Notes under the pieces: generated by a model
The model's database searches: none
The model's input: only the letters and a program-made list of their open reading frames with translations
Told to the model about the DNA's origin: nothing
Shown here: positions 1-15,053 of the stretch, in pieces
Layout of the letters: each line of letters opens with the position of its first letter
How positions within the stretch are numbered: the first letter of the stretch is position 1
Origin: Candidatus Hermodarchaeum yapensis
GTDB lineage: Archaea; Asgardarchaeota; Hermodarchaeia; Hermodarchaeales; Hermodarchaeaceae
Reading direction: 5' to 3'
Length of the DNA: 27,165 nt
NCBI GenBank assembly: GCA_016840405.1
Contig: JAEOSK010000037.1
Coordinates: 1 to 27,165, forward strand
Translations under genes and position numbers: made by a program

Positions 1-840
1 GCCATTGACCTCAAATATATCCAAGTCCTCATGGACTTCCGTGAACCTCCCAAAGAAGGCGTCACCGTCGGTTTCGTCTCAGGAGGAGTCCGCAACGAAG
101 AACAAGTCGAACTCCTCCACAAAATGCGCGAACGTTCAAAAATCCTTGTCGCCTTCGGAGCCTGCTCTGCCTTCGGTGGTATACCCGGGCTCGCCAACCT
201 TCACACAAAAGACGAACTCTTGCAAGAAGTCTACATCGATACAGTAAGCACGGTCAACCCAAAAGGTGTGATTCCCCACAAAGTCGTTCCCCCGCTTCTT
301 GAAGAAGTTCACCCTATCAGCGACTTTGTCAAAGTTGACTATGTTCTTCCAGGCTGCCCGCCACCACCCAAACTCATCGCTGAACTCGTCACCTGTCTCC
401 TCGAAGGCAAGGAATTCCGCCTCGAACCCAAAACCGTCTGCGACCAATGTCCTCTCATCAAAGATGAAAAAAGCGTCACCAACTTCATCCGTTGGGGTAC
501 TAAGAAAATCGACCCCGAACGCTGCCTCCTTGAACAAGGCTTCCAATGCCTCGGTCCCGTCACTCAAGGGGGCTGTGAAGCCCGCTGCCCAACCGCCCTT
601 GCACCTTGCCGAGGCTGCTTTGGACCTACCGAAAATGTCCATGACCAGGCCGCTAAAATGATAGGCGCCATCGGTTCCGTTGTCGTCCAAGACCCTACCA
701 AAGCCCCTGCACCTGAACAAATCGTGAAGGAAATTCCCGACCTCATCGGCACATACCTCCGATTCAGTTTAGCCGCATCTACCTTCAAAAAAGCGCTTCA
801 CACAAACGTTGTAAAAACGAAAAAGGGTGTAAAAGCATGA
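1..840 (+). CDS. mvhG: [NiFe]-hydrogenase small subunit (F420-non-reducing, MvhG-like), 5'-truncated by window edge
   Basis: Frame is open from base 1 (AIDLKYIQVLMD...). Motifs AFGACSAFGGIPGLAN, LPGCPPP, CDQC, CLLEQGFQCLGPVTQGGCEARCP and PCRGCFGP. The stop overlaps the mvhA start (ATGA). Confidence 0.9.
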   Translation, partial: AIDLKYIQVLMDFREPPKEGVTVGFVSGGVRNEEQVELLHKMRERSKILVAFGACSAFGGIPGLANLHTKDELLQEVYIDTVSTVNPKGVIPHKVVPPLLEEVHPISDFVKVDYVLPGCPPPPKLIAELVTCLLEGKEFRLEPKTVCDQCPLIKDEKSVTNFIRWGTKKIDPERCLLEQGFQCLGPVTQGGCEARCPTALAPCRGCFGPTENVHDQAAKMIGAIGSVVVQDPTKAPAPEQIVKEIPDLIGTYLRFSLAASTFKKALHTNVVKTKKGVKA

Positions 841-2261
841 GTCAAAAAGGAAAAACTATTAAAATCGCTCCCGTCTCCCGCGTCGAGGGACACGGAGCCG
901 TTACCATTCAACTCGACCAACAAGGCAACGTCGCCGATGCCCACTTCCACGTTATGGACGTACGCGGCTTCGAGATGTTTATGCAAAACCGTCCCGTAGA
1001 AGAAGCCCAACGCATCGCCACTCGCATGTGCGGCATCTGCCCCGTCAGCCACCACCTCGCCTCCGCCCACGCCGCAGACGCTTTATACGGTGTCGATCCT
1101 CCACGGACCGCCAAAATGCTCCGTGAACTCATGCACCACGGACAAATGATCCACTCCCATACTCTCCATTTCTTCTATCTCGCCGCACCTGACCTCCTTC
1201 TACCTAATACAGGTCCCGAAGAACGCCATGTTGTCACTCTTCTCAAAAAAAATCCCGACCTCGTCGGTAAAATCATCCGCCTGCGCCAAGTCGGCCAAAA
1301 CCTCATCGAAGCCACTGGCGGGCGTGCCATCCACCCCGTCACAGCACAACCCGGCGGCATCTCCCAACCACTCAGCGAAGAAAAACGTGACGACCTCCTG
1401 AAACAAGTCAACGAAGCCCAATCCCTCGCCACCGAACTCCTCCCCGTCGTCCGGCCTCTCCTCGACAAAGTCGAACTTCTCGACGAACTCCAAACCGGCT
1501 ACCTCGGTCTCGTCACTCCCAAAGGCGAACTCGAAGTCTACCAAGGCAATCTTCGCATGATCGACTCCACCGGCAAAAAACTCGCTGAATTTCCCGTCAA
1601 AGACTATCTCAAATACATCGGTGAACACGTCACTGACTACTCCTACCTCAAATTCCCCTTCTACCGCCCCTGGGGCTGGCCCAAAGGCATCTACCGCGTC
1701 GGACCCCTCGGCCGCATCAACGTCGCCGACGACATGAGCACCCCCCTCGCCCGCGAAGAATACACCACCATCAAAGCCAAATTCGACAAACCCTGGAACC
1801 ACACCTTCCTCTACCACTGGGCCCGCCTCACCGAAATCCTCAACTCCGTCGAAAAAGCCCACCAACTCCTCACCGACTCCCACATCACCGACACCGACGT
1901 CACCCGCGAATTCACCATCAAAGGCGGCCAAGGCATCGGCGTCATCGAAGCCCCCCGCGGCACCCTCATCCACCACTACACCGCCAACCCCGACGGCATC
2001 CTCACCAAAGTCAACCTCATAGTCAGCACCGTCGGCAACAACGGCGGCATGGACCAAGGCGTCAAAAACATGGCCCAACGCCACATCAAACACGGCAAAA
2101 TCAACCAACAAATCGAGAACAGCATCGAAATGGTCGTGAGGGCTTATGATCCGTGTCTTTCTTGTGCAGTTCACGCTGTAAATGGACATATGGCAATGCG
2201 TGTTACAGTGAAGAATCACTTAGGTGAAACATCCCAAGTTATTCAAAATTTCGAGGAGTAA
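837..2261 (+). CDS. mvhA: [NiFe]-hydrogenase large subunit (MvhA-like, group 3c type)
   Basis: SRVEGHG N-terminus, L1 motif RMCGICPVSH, EAPRGTLIHHY, L2 motif DPCLSCAVH followed by a 28-aa C-terminal extension. Confidence 0.93.
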   Translation: MSQKGKTIKIAPVSRVEGHGAVTIQLDQQGNVADAHFHVMDVRGFEMFMQNRPVEEAQRIATRMCGICPVSHHLASAHAADALYGVDPPRTAKMLRELMHHGQMIHSHTLHFFYLAAPDLLLPNTGPEERHVVTLLKKNPDLVGKIIRLRQVGQNLIEATGGRAIHPVTAQPGGISQPLSEEKRDDLLKQVNEAQSLATELLPVVRPLLDKVELLDELQTGYLGLVTPKGELEVYQGNLRMIDSTGKKLAEFPVKDYLKYIGEHVTDYSYLKFPFYRPWGWPKGIYRVGPLGRINVADDMSTPLAREEYTTIKAKFDKPWNHTFLYHWARLTEILNSVEKAHQLLTDSHITDTDVTREFTIKGGQGIGVIEAPRGTLIHHYTANPDGILTKVNLIVSTVGNNGGMDQGVKNMAQRHIKHGKINQQIENSIEMVVRAYDPCLSCAVHAVNGHMAMRVTVKNHLGETSQVIQNFEE

Positions 2262-2298
2262 TTGGTTAGTGGCTGGTTCGTGTTGCGAGCCAGTCCAA

Positions 2299-3114
2299 TT
2301 ATTGGTCAGTTTGAGCCAATTGTGATTGTTGAAGAAGTAATGAATATTGGTTGAGCTTCGAATCACCGTGAATCAACGATTGAAAGTTTGAAATCACTGT
2401 GTGGTTGATTTCTTTTATGTTGGTTTTTCGTAGTTTCGCAATGTGTGCAATTATGGGTTGTAGTTTTGTGTAGGGCATTTGTCGTGGGGGTGGTCCTGGA
2501 CCGTCAGTTTCTGTGAGCAACAGGTCTTGGGGAACTTCTTGGGCAATTGTTTGGATGCGTTTCCAATGCGGTATGGTGGTCTCCCATTGGGGAAGAACTG
2601 ATTGGCTGACAGTGATATAGAAACCGCGATCAACTACTTTGGCTAATAATTCGATGGGCCCCTCATAACCATGCATTATCACGCGAGTAATTCCGTATGC
2701 ATCGAGCAGGGTGATGGTCTCTTCATCAGCTCCCTTAGTGTGTAGGTTAACAATTAGATTGTGGGTTTTCGCTTTGTTTAAGAAGAATTCGAATAGTTGC
2801 CGTTGCACAGGATATTGAGAGGTGTCTTTAATGAAGAAGTGATCTAATCCAATCTCCCCTAACATCAGACAATTGATAATTAAATCGGTGAACTGATCGA
2901 GCTGGTTTACATACTCTGCTGCTCGGGATGGATGAATGCCAAATGCGGGAATTATGTAAGGTGACCGTTTTGCAATTTCCAGCGTTTTCTGATAGGCTGA
3001 CGGTTCACCGGACACCGAGACTACCAGTATTGGATGCACATTTAATTCGGCTAAGGCTGATTCTAAATCATCTTCATAAAAACTCCAATGACAGTGTGCA
3101 TCCAGACTTACCAA
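2299..3114 (-). CDS. tatD: TatD-family metal-dependent DNase/hydrolase
   Basis: DAHCH, FGIHP, GEIGLD, NLHT, MHG and LTETDGP motifs. Start placed at TTG 3114 after an AGGTG SD rather than the ORF-track 3180. Confidence 0.88.
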   Translation of the reverse strand: MVSLDAHCHWSFYEDDLESALAELNVHPILVVSVSGEPSAYQKTLEIAKRSPYIIPAFGIHPSRAAEYVNQLDQFTDLIINCLMLGEIGLDHFFIKDTSQYPVQRQLFEFFLNKAKTHNLIVNLHTKGADEETITLLDAYGITRVIMHGYEGPIELLAKVVDRGFYITVSQSVLPQWETTIPHWKRIQTIAQEVPQDLLLTETDGPGPPPRQMPYTKLQPIIAHIAKLRKTNIKEINHTVISNFQSLIHGDSKLNQYSLLLQQSQLAQTDQ

Positions 3115-3243
3115 GTCAACACCTGATATGAAAAAAGAATATTGAGCTATAAATAGCAAGAATAGAAACTCATTCACCATTCAATTTAATACCCTTTATA
3201 AGAGAATCCTTCCAAAGTAATGAGCACGGGTGTGGTGACTACT

Positions 3244-3402: not shown

Positions 3403-3513
3403 TGCCTCTAGTGTGCTTTGCACGCTATTAGCGAATATATGGCGATGCGGGTTAAGGTGTTCAATCATCTTGGTGAAGTTATTCAGGTGATCCAGAACTT
3501 TGAAGATCAATAG
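3403..3513 (+). pseudogene. Diverged orphan copy of mvhA 3' end (copy 2)
   Basis: Translates CL*CALHAISEYMAMRVKVFNHLGEVIQVIQNFEDQ* versus mvhA CLSCAVHAVNGHMAMRVTVKNHLGETSQVIQNFEE*. Hand count ~70/108 nt and 24/35 aa identical. Confidence 0.92.
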
Positions 3514-3615: not shown

Positions 3616-4116
3616 GTGGCGGTTGTGCAGGTTGAGTTGGTTGCGTATGCGTCGATGGTTGTTGCTTCAATTGGTTTAGTGGGGGCGGTGATTTATTACA
3701 TCAATGATCACCGGAATCAAGCCCGGATGCGGAAAACGGATCTGATTATGCGGTTGTATGCAACGTTCATGTCAAAGGAATTCCAGGAAGCCGATGTCAA
3801 AGTCATCATGCTTGATGTCAAAGATTATGCGGAGTATCAAAACAAGTATGGTCCGTATCCCAGTGAGCACCCAATGCATATTGCGTTCCGTTCGGTTGCC
3901 GCGTTTTTCGAAGCTGTGGGAATATTGTTAAAGAAAGGCCTCATCGAGATTGATCTTGTCTATGAAATTTTTTTTGTAAAACAACGTTGGGAGAAACTCT
4001 GGCCCATAATCCGCGATTTGCGCAAAGAGTTTGACTTTCCCGGATATATGGACAAATTCGAATATCTCTATCATGAAACAGAAAAATACGGACGCAACTT
4101 AGTGGTGAACGGTTAA
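3616..4116 (+). CDS. Membrane-anchored hypothetical protein, DUF4760-like
   Basis: N-terminal TM helix, then RKTDLIMRLY...FFEAVGILLKKGLIEIDLVYE, a pattern typical of DUF4760-like proteins. Confidence 0.7.
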   Translation: MAVVQVELVAYASMVVASIGLVGAVIYYINDHRNQARMRKTDLIMRLYATFMSKEFQEADVKVIMLDVKDYAEYQNKYGPYPSEHPMHIAFRSVAAFFEAVGILLKKGLIEIDLVYEIFFVKQRWEKLWPIIRDLRKEFDFPGYMDKFEYLYHETEKYGRNLVVNG

Positions 4117-4214
4117 TCTGCTGTGCATGCAGTAACGGGCATATGGCAATGTGTGTCAAGGTGTTGAATCATTTGGGTGAGACGACGCAAGTGATTCAGA
4201 ATTTTGAGGGTTGA
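4117..4214 (+). pseudogene. Diverged orphan copy of mvhA 3' end (copy 3)
   Basis: SAVHAV[-1 frameshift]GHMAMCVKVLNHLGETTQVIQNFEG*. Hand count ~73/99 nt identical to 2163-2261. Confidence 0.93.
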
Positions 4215-4219
4215 TGGGA

Positions 4220-4927
4220 TTATGCGACGGGTCCCATGAGCCAAATCCATGCAGCGAAGAGGATGTGTTCGGTTTCGTCGATGATGATTTGTTGGCATTC
4301 AAGTTGCGAGCCCGCACATAGGGGGCCGCAATAGTAGGTGAAAGAAAGTTGCATGTCGATGAGGTATACGTTGGTGTAATTGAATGACTGCTCCTGATTG
4401 AAATCTTCGTAATGGGTGTCATTCCAGAATCCGCCCAGCCAGTAATAGATAGGCCAATCAGGGAGATTGATGGGAAAGAGAATTGATTCGTTGGCTTTGA
4501 TGAGGAGGGGGTTCTGTTCTGGATAGTATTCCCACGCATCGATGTTCACGGTGAGATTGGCATACCAATTTGCACTGGCTGTGTAATTATACCGGAAATA
4601 ACCACAATTTGCATAGGGATCGAATTCGTATGCCGTGATATTTAGGGCGTCACGCCGTGTTTGAGTGATGAATCCTGAGTGTTCAAGATAACTAGTGTTT
4701 GCGGGGATCTGGGTGTAGTTGAAGGTTTCAGCCTGGTGTAGGGCGTTTGCTTCCTCTGGCGTATTAAAGATGCGGTGTTCAAAGTAAGTGAATTCCGCAG
4801 GATAAAATCCACAATTACGCCCAAACCCCAGGTAAATAACAAACCATCCTAAACCGATAATGAGAATGAGGGTTGGGACTATAACCCAAATCCAGGCTCT
4901 TGTCCTTTTCTTCATTTCCATTCCCAA
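4220..4927 (-). CDS. Membrane-anchored extracellular hypothetical protein
   Basis: Basic N-terminus plus TM helix, several N-x-S/T sequons, YYCGPLCAG motif near the C-terminus. Confidence 0.75.
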   Translation of the reverse strand: MGMEMKKRTRAWIWVIVPTLILIIGLGWFVIYLGFGRNCGFYPAEFTYFEHRIFNTPEEANALHQAETFNYTQIPANTSYLEHSGFITQTRRDALNITAYEFDPYANCGYFRYNYTASANWYANLTVNIDAWEYYPEQNPLLIKANESILFPINLPDWPIYYWLGGFWNDTHYEDFNQEQSFNYTNVYLIDMQLSFTYYCGPLCAGSQLECQQIIIDETEHILFAAWIWLMGPVA

Positions 4928-4986: not shown

Positions 4987-5024
4987 TTTCTTCTTACGCT
5001 GTGCATGCCGTTTACGGGCATAGG
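4987..5024 (+). pseudogene. Short orphan copy of mvhA 3' end (copy 4)
   Basis: tct tac gct gtg cat gcc gtt tac ggg cat = SYAVHAVYGH versus SCAVHAVNGH. Closely matches copy 3 (gctgtgcatgc.gt..acgggcata). Confidence 0.75.
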
Positions 5025-5026
5025 TA

Positions 5027-5683
5027 TCAAGTTCTGAGTTTTTCCCATTGGGCTGTGACTATAATGATTACTACAATTGTAACGACTGCAAATGGAAGTA
5101 AGATTGAAATTGGTAAGAGGTTGGGCATGATTATTGGGAATAGAGTGAGTATGGCTGGGCTCGTTGTATAGGTTACTGCAGGAGAGAATCCTGTCAGAGT
5201 TTGCACTTCGAACACTATCGTGAAGATGTATGTGATATTGGTGGGTGCTGGGTTCTCAACGCGGAGCCAGAAGTTGGTAACAAAAGTATGGTTCCAAAAT
5301 TCTCCTTCTTGTAGGCTTTCATCTAGGTAATCTTCTTGACCATGAGACCAGCCCTGTCCTTGCAGTTTTGCGGAATATTCAGTGATATGAACACTTGTCG
5401 CATTATGAGGTGATGTTTGATTCAAACTGATGACGTGAACCTGTAAAGAAGAAAAATACGAGGTATTCATGACAATGTTAGGTTCACCCTGGGCAGTAAT
5501 TTCTAATGTTGCTCCATATTCCGTCACGGTGTCGTTAATCAACCATGGAGTTGCCGTCGTCGTCTTGTTCAAGCAGGTTGCAAGTAGAAAAAGGATGAGT
5601 ATAGCAGCTGATCTTATTGCGTAATGTATCCATCTAGATTGATTGTGATATTTTTTGTGTTGCATTGCTACAGGCCTATGCAA
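5027..5683 (-). CDS. Secreted/membrane-anchored hypothetical protein
   Basis: Signal-like hydrophobic N-terminal segment, Thr/Asn-rich body with sequons, C-terminal TM helix. Start codon uncertain. Confidence 0.7.
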   Translation of the reverse strand: MHRPVAMQHKKYHNQSRWIHYAIRSAAILILFLLATCLNKTTTATPWLINDTVTEYGATLEITAQGEPNIVMNTSYFSSLQVHVISLNQTSPHNATSVHITEYSAKLQGQGWSHGQEDYLDESLQEGEFWNHTFVTNFWLRVENPAPTNITYIFTIVFEVQTLTGFSPAVTYTTSPAILTLFPIIMPNLLPISILLPFAVVTIVVIIIVTAQWEKLRT

Positions 5684-10739: not shown

Positions 10740-11303
10740 TTAGTCTTTATCGTCCTTCTCTTGGGGAATACGGGTTCCTAGCTGGTAGTAGTTGAAATCG
10801 CCTCCCGTCGCCCATAGAATTGGGTGGACTTTTTGCATGTCAAGTTTACCTTCACTGAGACATTCGGCGTTGACATAGGATTTGACGACACGTCCAATGA
10901 TACCATCATTTTGTTCATAATCGAGAATTTCCGCTACTTCACATTCAATATTAATGGGGGCCTGGTGAATCATCGGGGCGGTTTCTAGTTCCCCATAAAA
11001 AATCTCAAAGAGTGAACTCTTATCAACATCTCGTCCAGACTTACTCCCGCAAATATCGACCTCTACGAGGAGCTCCTCTGAGGGGACGTTCACACTAAAG
11101 GTGCGGTGCTCGTGAATACCAATGCGGGTGTGTCGTTTCTTATACAGGCTGAAGAATAGGTAGCGCCCAAAATCGAAGGGGCACATGTACCCAATTACGA
11201 GAAAGTTAGGTACGTCATTCACCAAAGCACCTACCAACGCGATGGGTAAGGGGCTAAACATGTTTTTCTCAAACTCGATCTTACCTAGACTCTGATTGTT
11301 CAA
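10740..11303 (-). CDS. Flavin reductase-like (flavoredoxin) family protein
   Basis: PLPIALVGALVNDVPNF, FSVNVPS, CGSKSGRDVDKS, APMIHQAPINIECEV. Start placed at TTG 11303 after a GAGGTG SD. Confidence 0.85.
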   Translation of the reverse strand: MNNQSLGKIEFEKNMFSPLPIALVGALVNDVPNFLVIGYMCPFDFGRYLFFSLYKKRHTRIGIHEHRTFSVNVPSEELLVEVDICGSKSGRDVDKSSLFEIFYGELETAPMIHQAPINIECEVAEILDYEQNDGIIGRVVKSYVNAECLSEGKLDMQKVHPILWATGGDFNYYQLGTRIPQEKDDKD

Positions 11304-11383
11304 TAACAGACACCTCTTTTCTTCCAGCAGGTTACGACCTAGTGAGCTGCGGAGTTCAACAGAGCATCTTAAATGCGTAATTT

Positions 11384-12136
11384 TCACTTGGGTTTATGTG
11401 CTTCAATTTTAGCACTTGTAGCAATATTGAACGGTGATTCGTTGACAATTCGGACATTAACGAATCCTGCATCCCGCATGAGCTGAAGATACTCTTCTTT
11501 AAGGATAGCTCCGCCCAAACAACCGGTGTAGGAAGCCACTTCATCGCGAACCTCTTTTGGCAGGGACGCTTCTAGCACGATGTCTGAAATTAGCATTCGC
11601 CCTCCTGGACGGAGCACCCGGAATGATTCAGTAAATACTTTTGACTTGTCTGGTGCCAGGTTAATGACGCAATTGCTGATAATGACATCAACGGATTCAT
11701 CATCAACTGGAAGGGCCTCAATATCGCCCTGTCGAAACTCAACGTTTTCTACGCCCATTTTTTCCGCATTGAGTTTGGCTTTTTCAGTCATTTCGGTTGT
11801 CATGTCAACCCCTATTACGCGGCCTTTGGGTCCAACTTCGCGGGCTGCCATGAAGGCGTCAAGCCCGGCGCCACTCCCTAAATCTAAAACAACATCGCCT
11901 TCATGAAGGCTCGCTAAAGCAACGGGATTTCCACATCCTGCAAACGATTCAGTTACTGAGTCGGGGAGATCCGTGACCTCGTAACCCAATTTCTCTGCTA
12001 GGGTATCTTGAGAACAACTTGAGGTGGGTCCACAACAGGATGTTGTGCGTTGGGCAACTTTGGTGTAGGCTTTTCTCACTTCTTCTTTAATTTCTTCATC
12101 GGTCATTTCGGTGATTTTTTTGGTTTCCGTCATCAT
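11384..12136 (-). CDS. arsM: Arsenite S-adenosylmethionine methyltransferase
   Basis: SCCG, FAGCGNP, VLDLGSGAGLD, IISNCVINLAPDK and GCLGGA motifs. Confidence 0.9.
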   Translation of the reverse strand: MMTETKKITEMTDEEIKEEVRKAYTKVAQRTTSCCGPTSSCSQDTLAEKLGYEVTDLPDSVTESFAGCGNPVALASLHEGDVVLDLGSGAGLDAFMAAREVGPKGRVIGVDMTTEMTEKAKLNAEKMGVENVEFRQGDIEALPVDDESVDVIISNCVINLAPDKSKVFTESFRVLRPGGRMLISDIVLEASLPKEVRDEVASYTGCLGGAILKEEYLQLMRDAGFVNVRIVNESPFNIATSAKIEAHKPK

Positions 12137-12148
12137 TTGCCACCAACG

Positions 12149-12216
12149 TATTGGTCGCCCAATAAGTTATGGGTAGTTAGACGACAGGCACATTTAAATG
12201 TATCGGACACCCAATA
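12149..12216. promoter_or_regulatory. Divergent arsM/padR promoter with two palindromic operators
   Basis: TATTGGTCGCCCAATA (12149-12164), palindromic CATTTAAATG TATA box (12191-12200), TATCGGACACCCAATA (12201-12216). Confidence 0.75.
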
Positions 12217-12222
12217 AATGCT

Positions 12223-12567
12223 ATGCCTGAAGAAAAAGAAATCGATGAATGCTGCCCCCCCGACTGCTGCGACATGCGCGGCATGCTATCTTTCCAAATC
12301 CTCTGGGAGCTTGGTAAAAAACCCATGAACGGTCAAGAACTTGCCGAACAAATCGGTCTCCGTCGGGGTAGCAAACCCACACCTGGCACAATCTATCCTG
12401 CCCTAAAAGAACTTAGTAACAAGAATCTGATCTCTGGTATGAGGGAGGGGCGACAAGTGATCTACACTCTCACCGATGAGGGGCGAACGGGGCTCGAGGT
12501 GGCCACACAATACTTCTATCGAGTATTCAATGAAATCATCGAAGCTGGAAAAACCTCGCTCCAATAA
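12223..12567 (+). CDS. PadR-family transcriptional regulator with N-terminal CCPPDCC motif
   Basis: RGMLSFQILWEL..KPMNGQEL, PTPGTIYPALKEL, YTLTDEGR winged-helix signatures. Confidence 0.88.
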   Translation: MPEEKEIDECCPPDCCDMRGMLSFQILWELGKKPMNGQELAEQIGLRRGSKPTPGTIYPALKELSNKNLISGMREGRQVIYTLTDEGRTGLEVATQYFYRVFNEIIEAGKTSLQ

Positions 12568-12631
12568 ATGGTATCTCAACGTTACGGGCTAGTTCTCACG
12601 TTTTAATTCTATTAACTGTAGCCGAAGAAGA

Positions 12632-12692
12632 TATTGGGTATCCAATATATTTAAATATTGGACGTACAATAAAAGATATCGGACATCCAATA
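12632..12692 (+). promoter_or_regulatory. Promoter with three palindromic operators upstream of sORF-nitroreductase
   Basis: TATTGGGTATCCAATA (12632-12647), TATTTAAATA box (12648-12657), TATTGGACGTACAATA (12656-12671), TATCGGACATCCAATA (12677-12692). Confidence 0.78.
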
Positions 12693-12710
12693 AATAGGAG
12701 GTCGATAAAA

Positions 12711-12812
12711 TTGGCGAATAAGAAATGTAATGCAGGCAATGTGTGTTCACCGGATTACAAATCAAATAGCAGTGTAGACTTTGCACGGGCTATGCTACTC
12801 CGAATTAGGTAA
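12711..12812 (+). CDS. Putative 33-aa small protein (MANKKCNAGNVCSPDYKSNSSVDFARAMLLRIR)
   Basis: GGAGGT SD (12697-12702) 8 nt before TTG, directly downstream of the operator-flanked promoter. Confidence 0.5.
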   Translation: MANKKCNAGNVCSPDYKSNSSVDFARAMLLRIR

Positions 12813-12846
12813 CTGTAACATTCTGAATTTCAAGGAATGATGAAAA

Positions 12847-13464
12847 ATGACAAAAGTAGTTGAAACTCAGTCAAAAACACCAGACTCTCCCAAAAAAGGG
12901 CTTTTAGATGTGACAGAACCGTTTTTCAAAGTTATTCAAAAACGCCGAAGCATCAGGCGTTACAAACCCTATGACATTCCTGATGCCGACCTAGAGAAGA
13001 TTCTTAACGCAGCCCGGCTAGCCCCGTCAACAAATAATAGCCAATCGTGGCGCTTCATTGTCATTAAGGACCCTGAAGTTAAAGCCTTGCTTGGACAGCC
13101 TTCTCCACAACGCTTCATAGCCAATGCAAATGCCATCATCGTAGTTCTCGGAATGCAACAGACATCCTGCTGTCCTGGAAATCAGGCTCGCTGGCATGTC
13201 CAAGATCCGATGATTGCGGCTGAACATCTTGTTCTTGCCGCAACGGCTCTAGGTTATGGATCCTGTTGGATTGCCACATATGAGTCCCGGCCACCTGAAT
13301 TTATCCAGGAGGTAAAAACTAAGCTTGAAATCCCCGAGAACGCTGACATTGTGGTTCTTGTTGCCCTTGGTGTTCCGGATGAAGCTCCTGCTCCCCGGTC
13401 TAGGAAACCCTTGGGGGAAATTGCGTTTCGCGAAAAATTTGGTCAATCTTGGTACGTACTTTAG
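12847..13464 (+). CDS. Nitroreductase family protein
   Basis: RRSIRRYK, AARLAPSTNNSQSWRF, LAATALGYGSCWI. Confidence 0.9.
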   Translation: MTKVVETQSKTPDSPKKGLLDVTEPFFKVIQKRRSIRRYKPYDIPDADLEKILNAARLAPSTNNSQSWRFIVIKDPEVKALLGQPSPQRFIANANAIIVVLGMQQTSCCPGNQARWHVQDPMIAAEHLVLAATALGYGSCWIATYESRPPEFIQEVKTKLEIPENADIVVLVALGVPDEAPAPRSRKPLGEIAFREKFGQSWYVL

Positions 13465-13588: not shown

Positions 13589-14296
13589 ATGGACCGAAAG
13601 TGGTTAGGGCTCCTCACTTTTCCCCTCATTCTAGGCTTGATTCTTGTTTCACCATTTTTAATAGGGTTTTTTGCACCTTCTCATGCACCTGAGGGTGGAG
13701 TCATTGGAGAGGAGCTTGCTAGCTTCATGAATGAAAAAGAGGCGGATATCTTTGCCGTTCGAATTCTAAGATATTGTATCTCAGAGATTTTATGCGGCAA
13801 TTTATTTTGTGGAGATCTGGTGTACCCGGACCTAAGGGACGCGCTTTTTATTCCCTTATCCACCGGAGCTTGGAATGCTACAGCCATCTTTGTAAATGAG
13901 ACTCTCGAATCCAATGATGAGCTATTCTACAAGGAGGCATTCCAGATTACGGTAAGCGAGGTTGAAAACATCTACAATGCTATTTACGCTGGGCTGTCGA
14001 ATACAATTGCATCGAGTGATTCCGTTGTCGATGTTATGTTCTTTATTGGGTTTGGGTTAGACCTCCTATATTCAGATGGAACCTGGGTTCAACTGTTCAC
14101 AATCCCAAGTGCGAAAGGACATATCATGTTCCTGAACAGCACCTATACAGGTACACCTAATCCAGTGAATCCTTTTGATCTGAGTTTCCTTCAACGAGAC
14201 GAGAACCGATTGAATGGTGTCCTACTAGAACCCGGAACTGCACTGGATGAACTAGTTACTGTGATGAGTGCAGTGTTTGTGAATCACCTGAACTAG
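13589..14296 (+). CDS. Membrane-anchored hypothetical protein, paralog A
   Basis: N-terminal TM; clearly homologous over its full length to 14370-15053. Confidence 0.8.
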   Translation: MDRKWLGLLTFPLILGLILVSPFLIGFFAPSHAPEGGVIGEELASFMNEKEADIFAVRILRYCISEILCGNLFCGDLVYPDLRDALFIPLSTGAWNATAIFVNETLESNDELFYKEAFQITVSEVENIYNAIYAGLSNTIASSDSVVDVMFFIGFGLDLLYSDGTWVQLFTIPSAKGHIMFLNSTYTGTPNPVNPFDLSFLQRDENRLNGVLLEPGTALDELVTVMSAVFVNHLN

Positions 14297-14369
14297 TCTG
14301 TCGAAACGCTTTGCCGGTAACTGTATGCTAATAAAGCATGGCTCATAATTCAGCAATATCAATTAAAGA

Positions 14370-15053
14370 TTGGTGGGCATTATGAACCGGAAATGGTTAG
14401 GCCTTCTCGTTATACCCATAGTATTGGGCTTGATTCTCGTTTCTCCCTTTATACTAGGCTTCTTCGCCCCTCCATCTCCAACGGATGGGGGAACCACAGG
14501 AGACTCGCTTTCGACTTTCATGCACGGAAAAGAATCTGATATCCTAGCTGTCCAAATTATGGGTAATAGCTCGGATATCGTCTATCCTGAATTGATGAAC
14601 GCTCTCTTCATCCCCTTACTTGGGGGTTCTTGGAATGTGTCTGCTAGTTTCCTCAACGACACTGATCCATACAACATCACTTTTTACAATGAATCATTTA
14701 TAGCTACTCTCACCGATGTTGAAGATATCAATAATGCCATCTACGATGGACTGGAAAACACCACACAATCTCTGGATTCCATTTCAGACCTATTCTATTC
14801 TGTCGGCTTTGGCTTAGACATTCTATATGCAGATAACACTTGGATACAGCTGTTTACCATTCAAAGCCCCACCGGACATATCATGTTCCTGAATGGCACC
14901 TATACTGGAACACCTAGCCCAACGAATCCCTTCAACCCGTCTATCATTCAACGTGACGAGAACTGGATGAATGGCATTCTGTTAGAACCCGGAACCGCAC
15001 TGGATGAACTCGTAGCAACCATGAATGCAGTGTTCGTAAACCATCTCGGCTAG
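14370..15053 (+). CDS. Membrane-anchored hypothetical protein, paralog B
   Basis: Shares RKWLGLL, GHIMFLN.TYTGTP, QRDEN and LLEPGTALDELV with paralog A. The start may be the ATG at 14382. Confidence 0.8.
   Translation: MVGIMNRKWLGLLVIPIVLGLILVSPFILGFFAPPSPTDGGTTGDSLSTFMHGKESDILAVQIMGNSSDIVYPELMNALFIPLLGGSWNVSASFLNDTDPYNITFYNESFIATLTDVEDINNAIYDGLENTTQSLDSISDLFYSVGFGLDILYADNTWIQLFTIQSPTGHIMFLNGTYTGTPSPTNPFNPSIIQRDENWMNGILLEPGTALDELVATMNAVFVNHLG

Follow-up and report, generated by a model that had tools for sequence, protein, structure and literature searches.

A strand-polarised switch of silent-site composition inside the hydrogenase gene mvhA of a Hermodarchaeia genome: a probable scar of repeated break repair at a homing site

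The window, a stretch of 27,165 nt, is the entire contig C25 of genome G000 (a 2.7-Mb assembly, 86% complete). It opens with the [NiFe]-hydrogenase genes mvhG and mvhA, followed by four cassette genes, and decayed 3' ends of mvhA, starting at 3403, 4116 and, partly, at 4991, each precede an unrelated gene (Table 1). Farther along the window, at 13589-15053, there are two tandem paralogues with no Pfam match, their C-termini being 75% identical.

Table 1. Genes and sequence features around mvhA in the window.
Feature	Position	Strand	Remarks
mvhG, small subunit	31..840	+	5' end beyond contig start; outer gradient, silent sites 65-87% C/A
mvhA, [NiFe]-hydrogenase large subunit	837..2261	+	474 aa, intact; hosts the flip site
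Saturated zone in mvhA, all silent sites C or A	1641..2114	+	four-fold sites 75 C, 1 A
Change point (2133-2136) and ten G/T-ending codons	2133..2165	+	
Codons P439-H446 (L2 motif DPCxxCxxH)	2151..2174	+	swap boundary, hypervariable patch, putative endonuclease target
Resident mvhA tail, swapped	2154..2261	+	26% divergent from L129
tatD-like gene, first cassette	2299..3180	-	G/T-rich on + strand near the tail, fades distally
Orphan mvhA tail 1	3403..3510	+	from the C440 codon
DUF4760 gene, second cassette	3616..4116	+	G/T 80% declining to 32%
Orphan mvhA tail 2	4116..4214	+	
Membrane-anchored protein without assigned function, third cassette	4220..4927	-	homologues in mvhA arrays of relatives
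Orphan mvhA tail 3, partial, weak	4991..5022	+	nhmmer E 0.29; tops the non-tail hits; in register
Protein without assigned function, fourth cassette	5027..5683	-	G/T 80% beside the orphan tail

In mvhA, 153 successive synonymous sites are all occupied by C or A, the genome mean being 53%, and the probability of such a run is about 1e-17 even if the C/A level of 78% found upstream is taken as the baseline. The bias had been described as growing along mvhG and mvhA, and indeed C/A at silent third positions climbs from 65-87% in mvhG to 100% at 1677-2036. At 1641-2114 the four-fold sites comprise 75 C, 1 A, 0 G and 0 T; the two-fold pyrimidine sites, 38 C and 0 T; and the two-fold purine sites, 23 A and 0 G. 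The amino-acid replacements in this zone favour C/A codons as well, approximately 2:1. The maximum-likelihood change point is 2136, the next best positions being 2133 and 2115. A recount reproduced the ten G/T-ending codons reported from 2136 onwards, and the local base counts of the original prediction (27 C and 8 G at 1801-1860; 17 G and 5 C at 2401-2460) were exact. The flip is asymmetric: the mvhA tail has merely 56% G/T at silent sites, and the silent sites of tatD have 60-80% G/T across the first ~500 nt. Mis-assembly was rejected, as among the matches listed there are contigs of other sequencing runs that span the site, hence the flip is not an assembly join. Thus, the composition switch inside mvhA is real.

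The change point is followed by a replaced gene end. Between the window and the mvhA of L129, which are 96% identical, we observe 2-5 differences per 100 nt through 2152 and 25.7 per 100 nt from 2153 on, so that the boundary of the tail swap falls at P439/C440, that is, at 2153 (range 2153-2157). The original prediction placed the flip 20-30 bp ahead of a repeat boundary; the order is correct, and the distance is refined to about 18-20 nt. As positions 2136-2150 are common to the window and L129, the G/T-ending codons there belong to the host side, and this stretch is probably an older conversion tract; in several relatives a tract without the C/A bias begins near codon 412, yielding a mosaic pattern. 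A contig of the same species has seven silent differences from the window over the 546 nt compared, all of them within 2153-2174. Over the 24-nt patch, this contig and the endonuclease-linked allele of L128 agree completely, and no such identity was seen in any of 105 pairs of resident alleles.

Relatives carry 32 orphan copies of the mvhA tail, and the well-preserved ones start at C440-L441 of the L2 motif. Enrichment in G/T is seen for about 500 nt after each orphan tail, and enrichment in C/A, upstream of the resident site only, as would be expected if every cassette had once adjoined the active site. The same cassettes recur in different species. The suggested connection of the flip with an insertion hotspot holds. 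A block of flavin reductase, methyltransferase, padR and nitroreductase genes is present in the window at 10740-13464, as well as in L045:435-3154 and L127:2291-4988. In G001 it is the first cassette behind mvhA, and in L127 it is situated inside the array; judging by these positions, the mvhA array of the window probably once reached 13.5 kb. No copies of the mvhA tail are detectable in the window at 10740-13464.

In six other assemblies (L035, L044, L126-L129), a convergent free-standing gene, encoding 605-640 aa where whole, is located immediately behind mvhA. In the window this gene does not follow mvhA, the first place being occupied by tatD. The C-terminal 340 aa of the encoded protein were modelled by AlphaFold with pLDDT 90, and the model matches the LAGLIDADG homing-endonuclease fold: the best Foldseek hits were the TliVMA intein, I-Tsp061I, PI-SceI and I-DmoI (E down to 2e-7), and both LAGLIDADG acidic motifs are present. 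The free-standing endonucleases were missed by Pfam, and a sequence-profile search of PDB yielded no significant match for the mvhA-linked gene. In the tree of the family (midpoint-rooted; the alignment rows cover the C-terminal part) the members cluster by host gene, with support of 100/100 for the nuoD-like clade and 100/99 for the mvhA clade. The variable patch at the mvhA junction comprises 22-24 nt, and the targets of LAGLIDADG enzymes are 18-22 bp long (PMC7487136). The third of the endonuclease gene closest to mvhA has a nearly neutral, unbiased composition. In the alleles of L035 and L132 the endonuclease gene is present and the C/A saturation is absent, the latter being absent also at the rpsS-linked family member of L134; thus, the gene alone is not sufficient for the mark. 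A search of proteins of 831-2370 aa for a longer homologue, as expected for an intein at DP|C of mvhA, scored none, which is weak evidence. More free-standing LAGLIDADG-like genes are found at C71:1319-4046, C42:121943-122555 and C29:23699-25153; one is fragmented, behind C42:121004.

The mvhA flip surpasses all others in the genome by two statistics (z 11.3). The genome holds about ten sharp flips, all of one polarity, and the nine strongest step-like ones share that of mvhA, large skew values of the opposite sign being the distal edges of the very patches that hold flips. Five within-gene flips of at least 0.5 have the mvhA polarity and none the opposite one, with 0-1 in shuffles. The skew follows the strand, as genes encoded on the minus strand within such zones have coding strands saturated with G (on C30, 30 of 38 four-fold sites are G). 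The rule that every flip coincides with a duplicated gene end was rejected, since in this genome it is limited to mvhA, etfA and one helicase, and no motif common to the flip centres was found by eye or by local BLAST.

It had been proposed to check mvhA orthologues for the same gradient. Within the genus the gradient is found at identical codons of mvhA, radA, etfA and the gene of a NuoD-like large subunit, being decayed in some species, and it is missing from orthologues in other families. The flip positions are constant throughout the genus, and the genes downstream differ. For radA of two species with 98% protein identity, silent differences amount to 10-14% at the 5' end versus about 60% beyond the flip. 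In the relatives, many contigs end where mvhA, radA and the NuoD-like gene are saturated with C (L007-L013, L070-L071, L112-L113), perhaps due to strain mosaicism or low complexity.

Many of the other flips are associated with mobile elements. At the mvhA, etfA and NuoD-like flips, a member of the endonuclease family is situated behind the gene, in this genome or in relatives. The NuoD-like gene, a group-4 large subunit (C76:71749-72954, L052), flips shortly before its DPCFSC motif, as mvhA does, and the endonuclease behind it forms a clade of its own. At the rpsS flip there is a gene with LAGLIDADG-like motifs in this genome, and in L134 a family member is located behind rpsS. The gene of PolD DP2, which also has a flip, contains an intein (C3:82454-87550, L056); in addition to the flank bias, a second sharp flip is observed within this intein, at about residue 1237. 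In six inteins the four-fold sites of the left exteins have 99 C and 6 G, and the right exteins are mostly G/T-rich; the intein starts were placed too far downstream, by four residues at most, with no material effect on these flank counts. In L072 (radA of G006) a 57-nt hairpin insert, an inverted repeat at ~670-730, splits radA at FFGA|PDRPT, at the flip; from its sequence, it looks like an archaeal intron of the bulge-helix-bulge type in a protein gene.

To the remaining three of the nine, C14:50.5k, C14:94.1k and C38:52.5k, no mobile element was linked in this genome; of these strong flips (C14:50500, C14:94060, C38:52500), two lie within genes of small GTPases, and one separates an MFS gene from a hydrolase gene. 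In the MCM gene (C24:1053-3128), in which no intein is present, a weaker flip coincides with the Walker A motif GDPGT; this is possibly an empty intein site. At C36:1871 a flip immediately precedes a tRNA gene, and at C53:4215-5186 there is an integrase with repeated 3' ends; integration sites of the tRNA type may hence bear the same skew mark.

We consider it probable that the flip in mvhA is a scar of strand-specific mutation, formed as homing-type breaks were repaired again and again with biased repair synthesis. According to this scenario, the enzyme would cut near 2150-2175 (codons 439-446) of alleles lacking the endonuclease gene, and donor-templated repair of the break would import a resistant tail, either alone or together with cargo. 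Through co-conversion over varying distances, the flanks would then repeatedly undergo repair synthesis, which would be strand-biased, so that G and then T would accumulate in the strand whose 5'-3' direction points away from the cut; equivalently, C and then A would accumulate in the strand pointing towards the cut, the data fitting both variants. The expected outcome would be a gradient that is saturated beside the cut and fades over 1-3 kb, its sharp edge marking the start of donor-derived sequence, while in other species older conversion tracts would extend back to about codon 412. As the endonuclease gene is absent from the mvhA locus of the window, the mark there would be a relic of past activity or be driven in trans. 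A single DinB-type gene and NucS are present in the genome, the DinB-type gene being no more than a candidate for the polymerase that would produce the scar. In Escherichia coli, break-linked, DinB-dependent mutation hotspots peak within 2 kb (PMC3607216), and oxidised dGTP opposite A leads to A-to-C changes (PMC5542668).

A more tentative proposal, which we regard as possible and would not yet favour, goes further: break-repair synthesis in Hermodarchaeia would be biased strongly enough to bring silent sites to nearly 100% C on one strand and to shift amino-acid usage; the skew would chart the homing and integration sites of the whole genome, both occupied and empty; and the same cycle of cutting and repair would also gather ordinary genes into arrays that resemble those of integrons but need no integrase.

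The original prediction offered deamination of C and A in single-stranded DNA as one cause. As a sufficient cause it fails, because 99% C at four-fold sites requires transversions: transitions alone would yield about 55 C to 45 A at these sites, the observed ratio being 75:1. Moreover, deamination on a resected 3' overhang or on a displaced strand would presumably turn the left side G/T-rich, that is, produce the opposite polarity. Single-strand deamination gradients are known from vertebrate mitochondrial DNA, and APOBEC clusters occur at resected breaks. They resemble the mvhA mark in being strand-specific gradients at silent sites, but consist of transitions only, whereas the 75:1 ratio of C to A in mvhA needs transversions.

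The same prediction pointed out that C/A on the left and G/T on the right is the polarity of a replication origin, and in this respect the comparison with the true oriC of the genome agrees. This oriC has three ORB boxes at C3:42976-44117 (L059), upstream of cdc6 (44363-45598); full ORB matches are confined to C3:42976-44098, and several mismatches are required elsewhere. Matches to Cdc6_C are found on C3 (two), C24 and C18. The reported lack of a recognisable ORB box at the flip was confirmed by the ORB search, which found none on C25 or near 2130 (the contig begins 2.1 kb upstream of the flip), and there is no Cdc6_C match on C25 in the 86%-complete genome searched. In the assembled contigs, the depth is flat per contig. 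Thus, the mvhA flip is not the replication origin of the chromosome. Its likeness to archaeal origins, with their ORB boxes beside orc1/cdc6, is limited to the polarity; the mvhA site is intragenic, has no ORB box, cdc6 or AT-rich intergenic gap, and its skew is much stronger.

The best surviving alternative, which is still unlikely, is that cuts or the site itself launch bidirectional recombination-dependent forks, so that the skew would reflect a leading/lagging bias concentrated near the start. Such a break-primed origin would account for the polarity shared with the oriC on C3 and for the dependence of the skew on strand rather than on gene direction, and it fits all the homing evidence. 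However, the oriC, which would be expected to fire in every cycle, flips in the same direction much more weakly, from 57-62% C/A on the left to 32-45% on the right, compared to 99% at the mvhA site. The mvhA skew also vanishes within 1-3 kb, no replichore-scale trend begins there, and G/T restarts at each orphan tail.

Less probable is an integron-like recombinase that would insert single-stranded cassettes at a core near C440, the skew arising from single-stranded intermediates. In its favour, the junctions are exact to a few nucleotides and cassettes recur between species; however, there is no tyrosine recombinase beside the array, the two matches in the genome being on C16 and C53, and the junction is the most variable stretch rather than the most conserved one. 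The flip centres have no visible common motif, and the same mark at inteins would be left unexplained. The repeats of the mvhA array are decayed coding tails, and the genes upstream of mvhA in L126 are hdrA-mvhDG.

A recent splice of two compositionally different donors, named in the original prediction as a potential full explanation of the flip, is more doubtful still. The tail is foreign from 2153, and several relatives have the mosaic pattern with the tract lacking the C/A bias from about codon 412, so a splice does account for the sharp right edge. The left side, on the contrary, rises smoothly from 65-87% in mvhG to 100%, for which a splice does not account. The genome has no class of genes with such usage, many species show the pattern at the identical codon, and it reappears at unrelated genes. 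The flip itself precedes the splice, being situated in sequence common to the window and L129. Hence, as a full explanation the splice is largely refuted.

That the site is a canonical origin or terminus of the chromosome, or that the flip results from selected codon usage, is hardly credible: despite the origin-like polarity, ORB boxes and cdc6 are on C3 and both are missing from C25, and there are about ten equally sharp flips in the genome, while ordinary codon bias, already doubted in the earlier reading of the sequence, is contradicted by highly expressed genes (just 50-59% C/A in EF-1a, thermosome and rpoB; no saturation in these, in rpoA or in other hydrogenase genes) and by the G-saturation of opposite-strand genes in flip zones. 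A diversity-generating retroelement was rejected too, as there is no RVT_1 match in the 86%-complete genome and it is G and T that are lost, A being retained.

If the repair-scar reading is right, base composition alone flags the cut sites of selfish endonucleases in an uncultured Asgard lineage, and target sites become predictable and testable in vitro, here at codons 439-446 of mvhA. It would also point to a mutational process in archaeal break repair that is strongly polarised and so far undescribed. It would caution against reading origins from skew flips in these genomes, and it would mean that, among the genes employed in phylogenies, radA, PolD, rpsS and those of hydrogenases are mosaics whose composition is locally biased.

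In the literature on skew, homing and Asgard archaea that we searched, covering few subscription journals, no description of a saturating polarised skew mark was found. The words "integron" and "skew" are absent from Wu et al. 2022 (PMC8813620), and a survey of archaeal skew (PMC12999951) makes no mention of Asgard. The type of element is already known, from fungal mitochondria and phages, and the polarised saturating mark and the cargo arrays were not found in the literature searched.

The break-linked hotspots of E. coli, which depend on RpoS and DinB, were demonstrated in an I-SceI assay and tied to resection and gap filling (PMC3607216). Similarly to mvhA, where the break itself is presumed, mutations there cluster on either side of a repaired break, at distances of up to about 2 kb; the mvhA mark, in contrast, is evolutionary and strand-polarised, with silent sites reaching nearly 100% C. 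In intronless homing of T4-like phages, free-standing seg and mob endonucleases cut within a conserved neighbour gene, apart from the endonuclease gene, and the flanks are co-converted (PMC2988022), as would be the case at mvhA if the enzyme cuts there. The mvhA-linked gene, however, has a predicted LAGLIDADG rather than GIY-YIG or HNH fold, and the mvhA system has duplicated tails and a putative long-term compositional scar.

The closest likeness in arrangement is to mORFs of fungal mitochondria, which, according to PMC3630166, bring a foreign C-terminus to a gene, as in Allomyces atp6 and in Glomus atp6, atp9, cox2 and nad3. As in that account, a LAGLIDADG gene (in the relatives) follows a 3' end that has been replaced, and the old one, displaced, is left downstream. 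The window allele has both the foreign resident tail and the displaced tail, and has no endonuclease gene behind mvhA, having lost or never had it, unlike the alleles of six other assemblies. Compared with the mORFs as presented in the consulted passages of that source, which do not mention a saturating strand skew such as that of mvhA, the mvhA system resides on an archaeal chromosome, its endonuclease gene is convergent with the host gene, and up to six old tails are stacked together with unrelated cargo genes.
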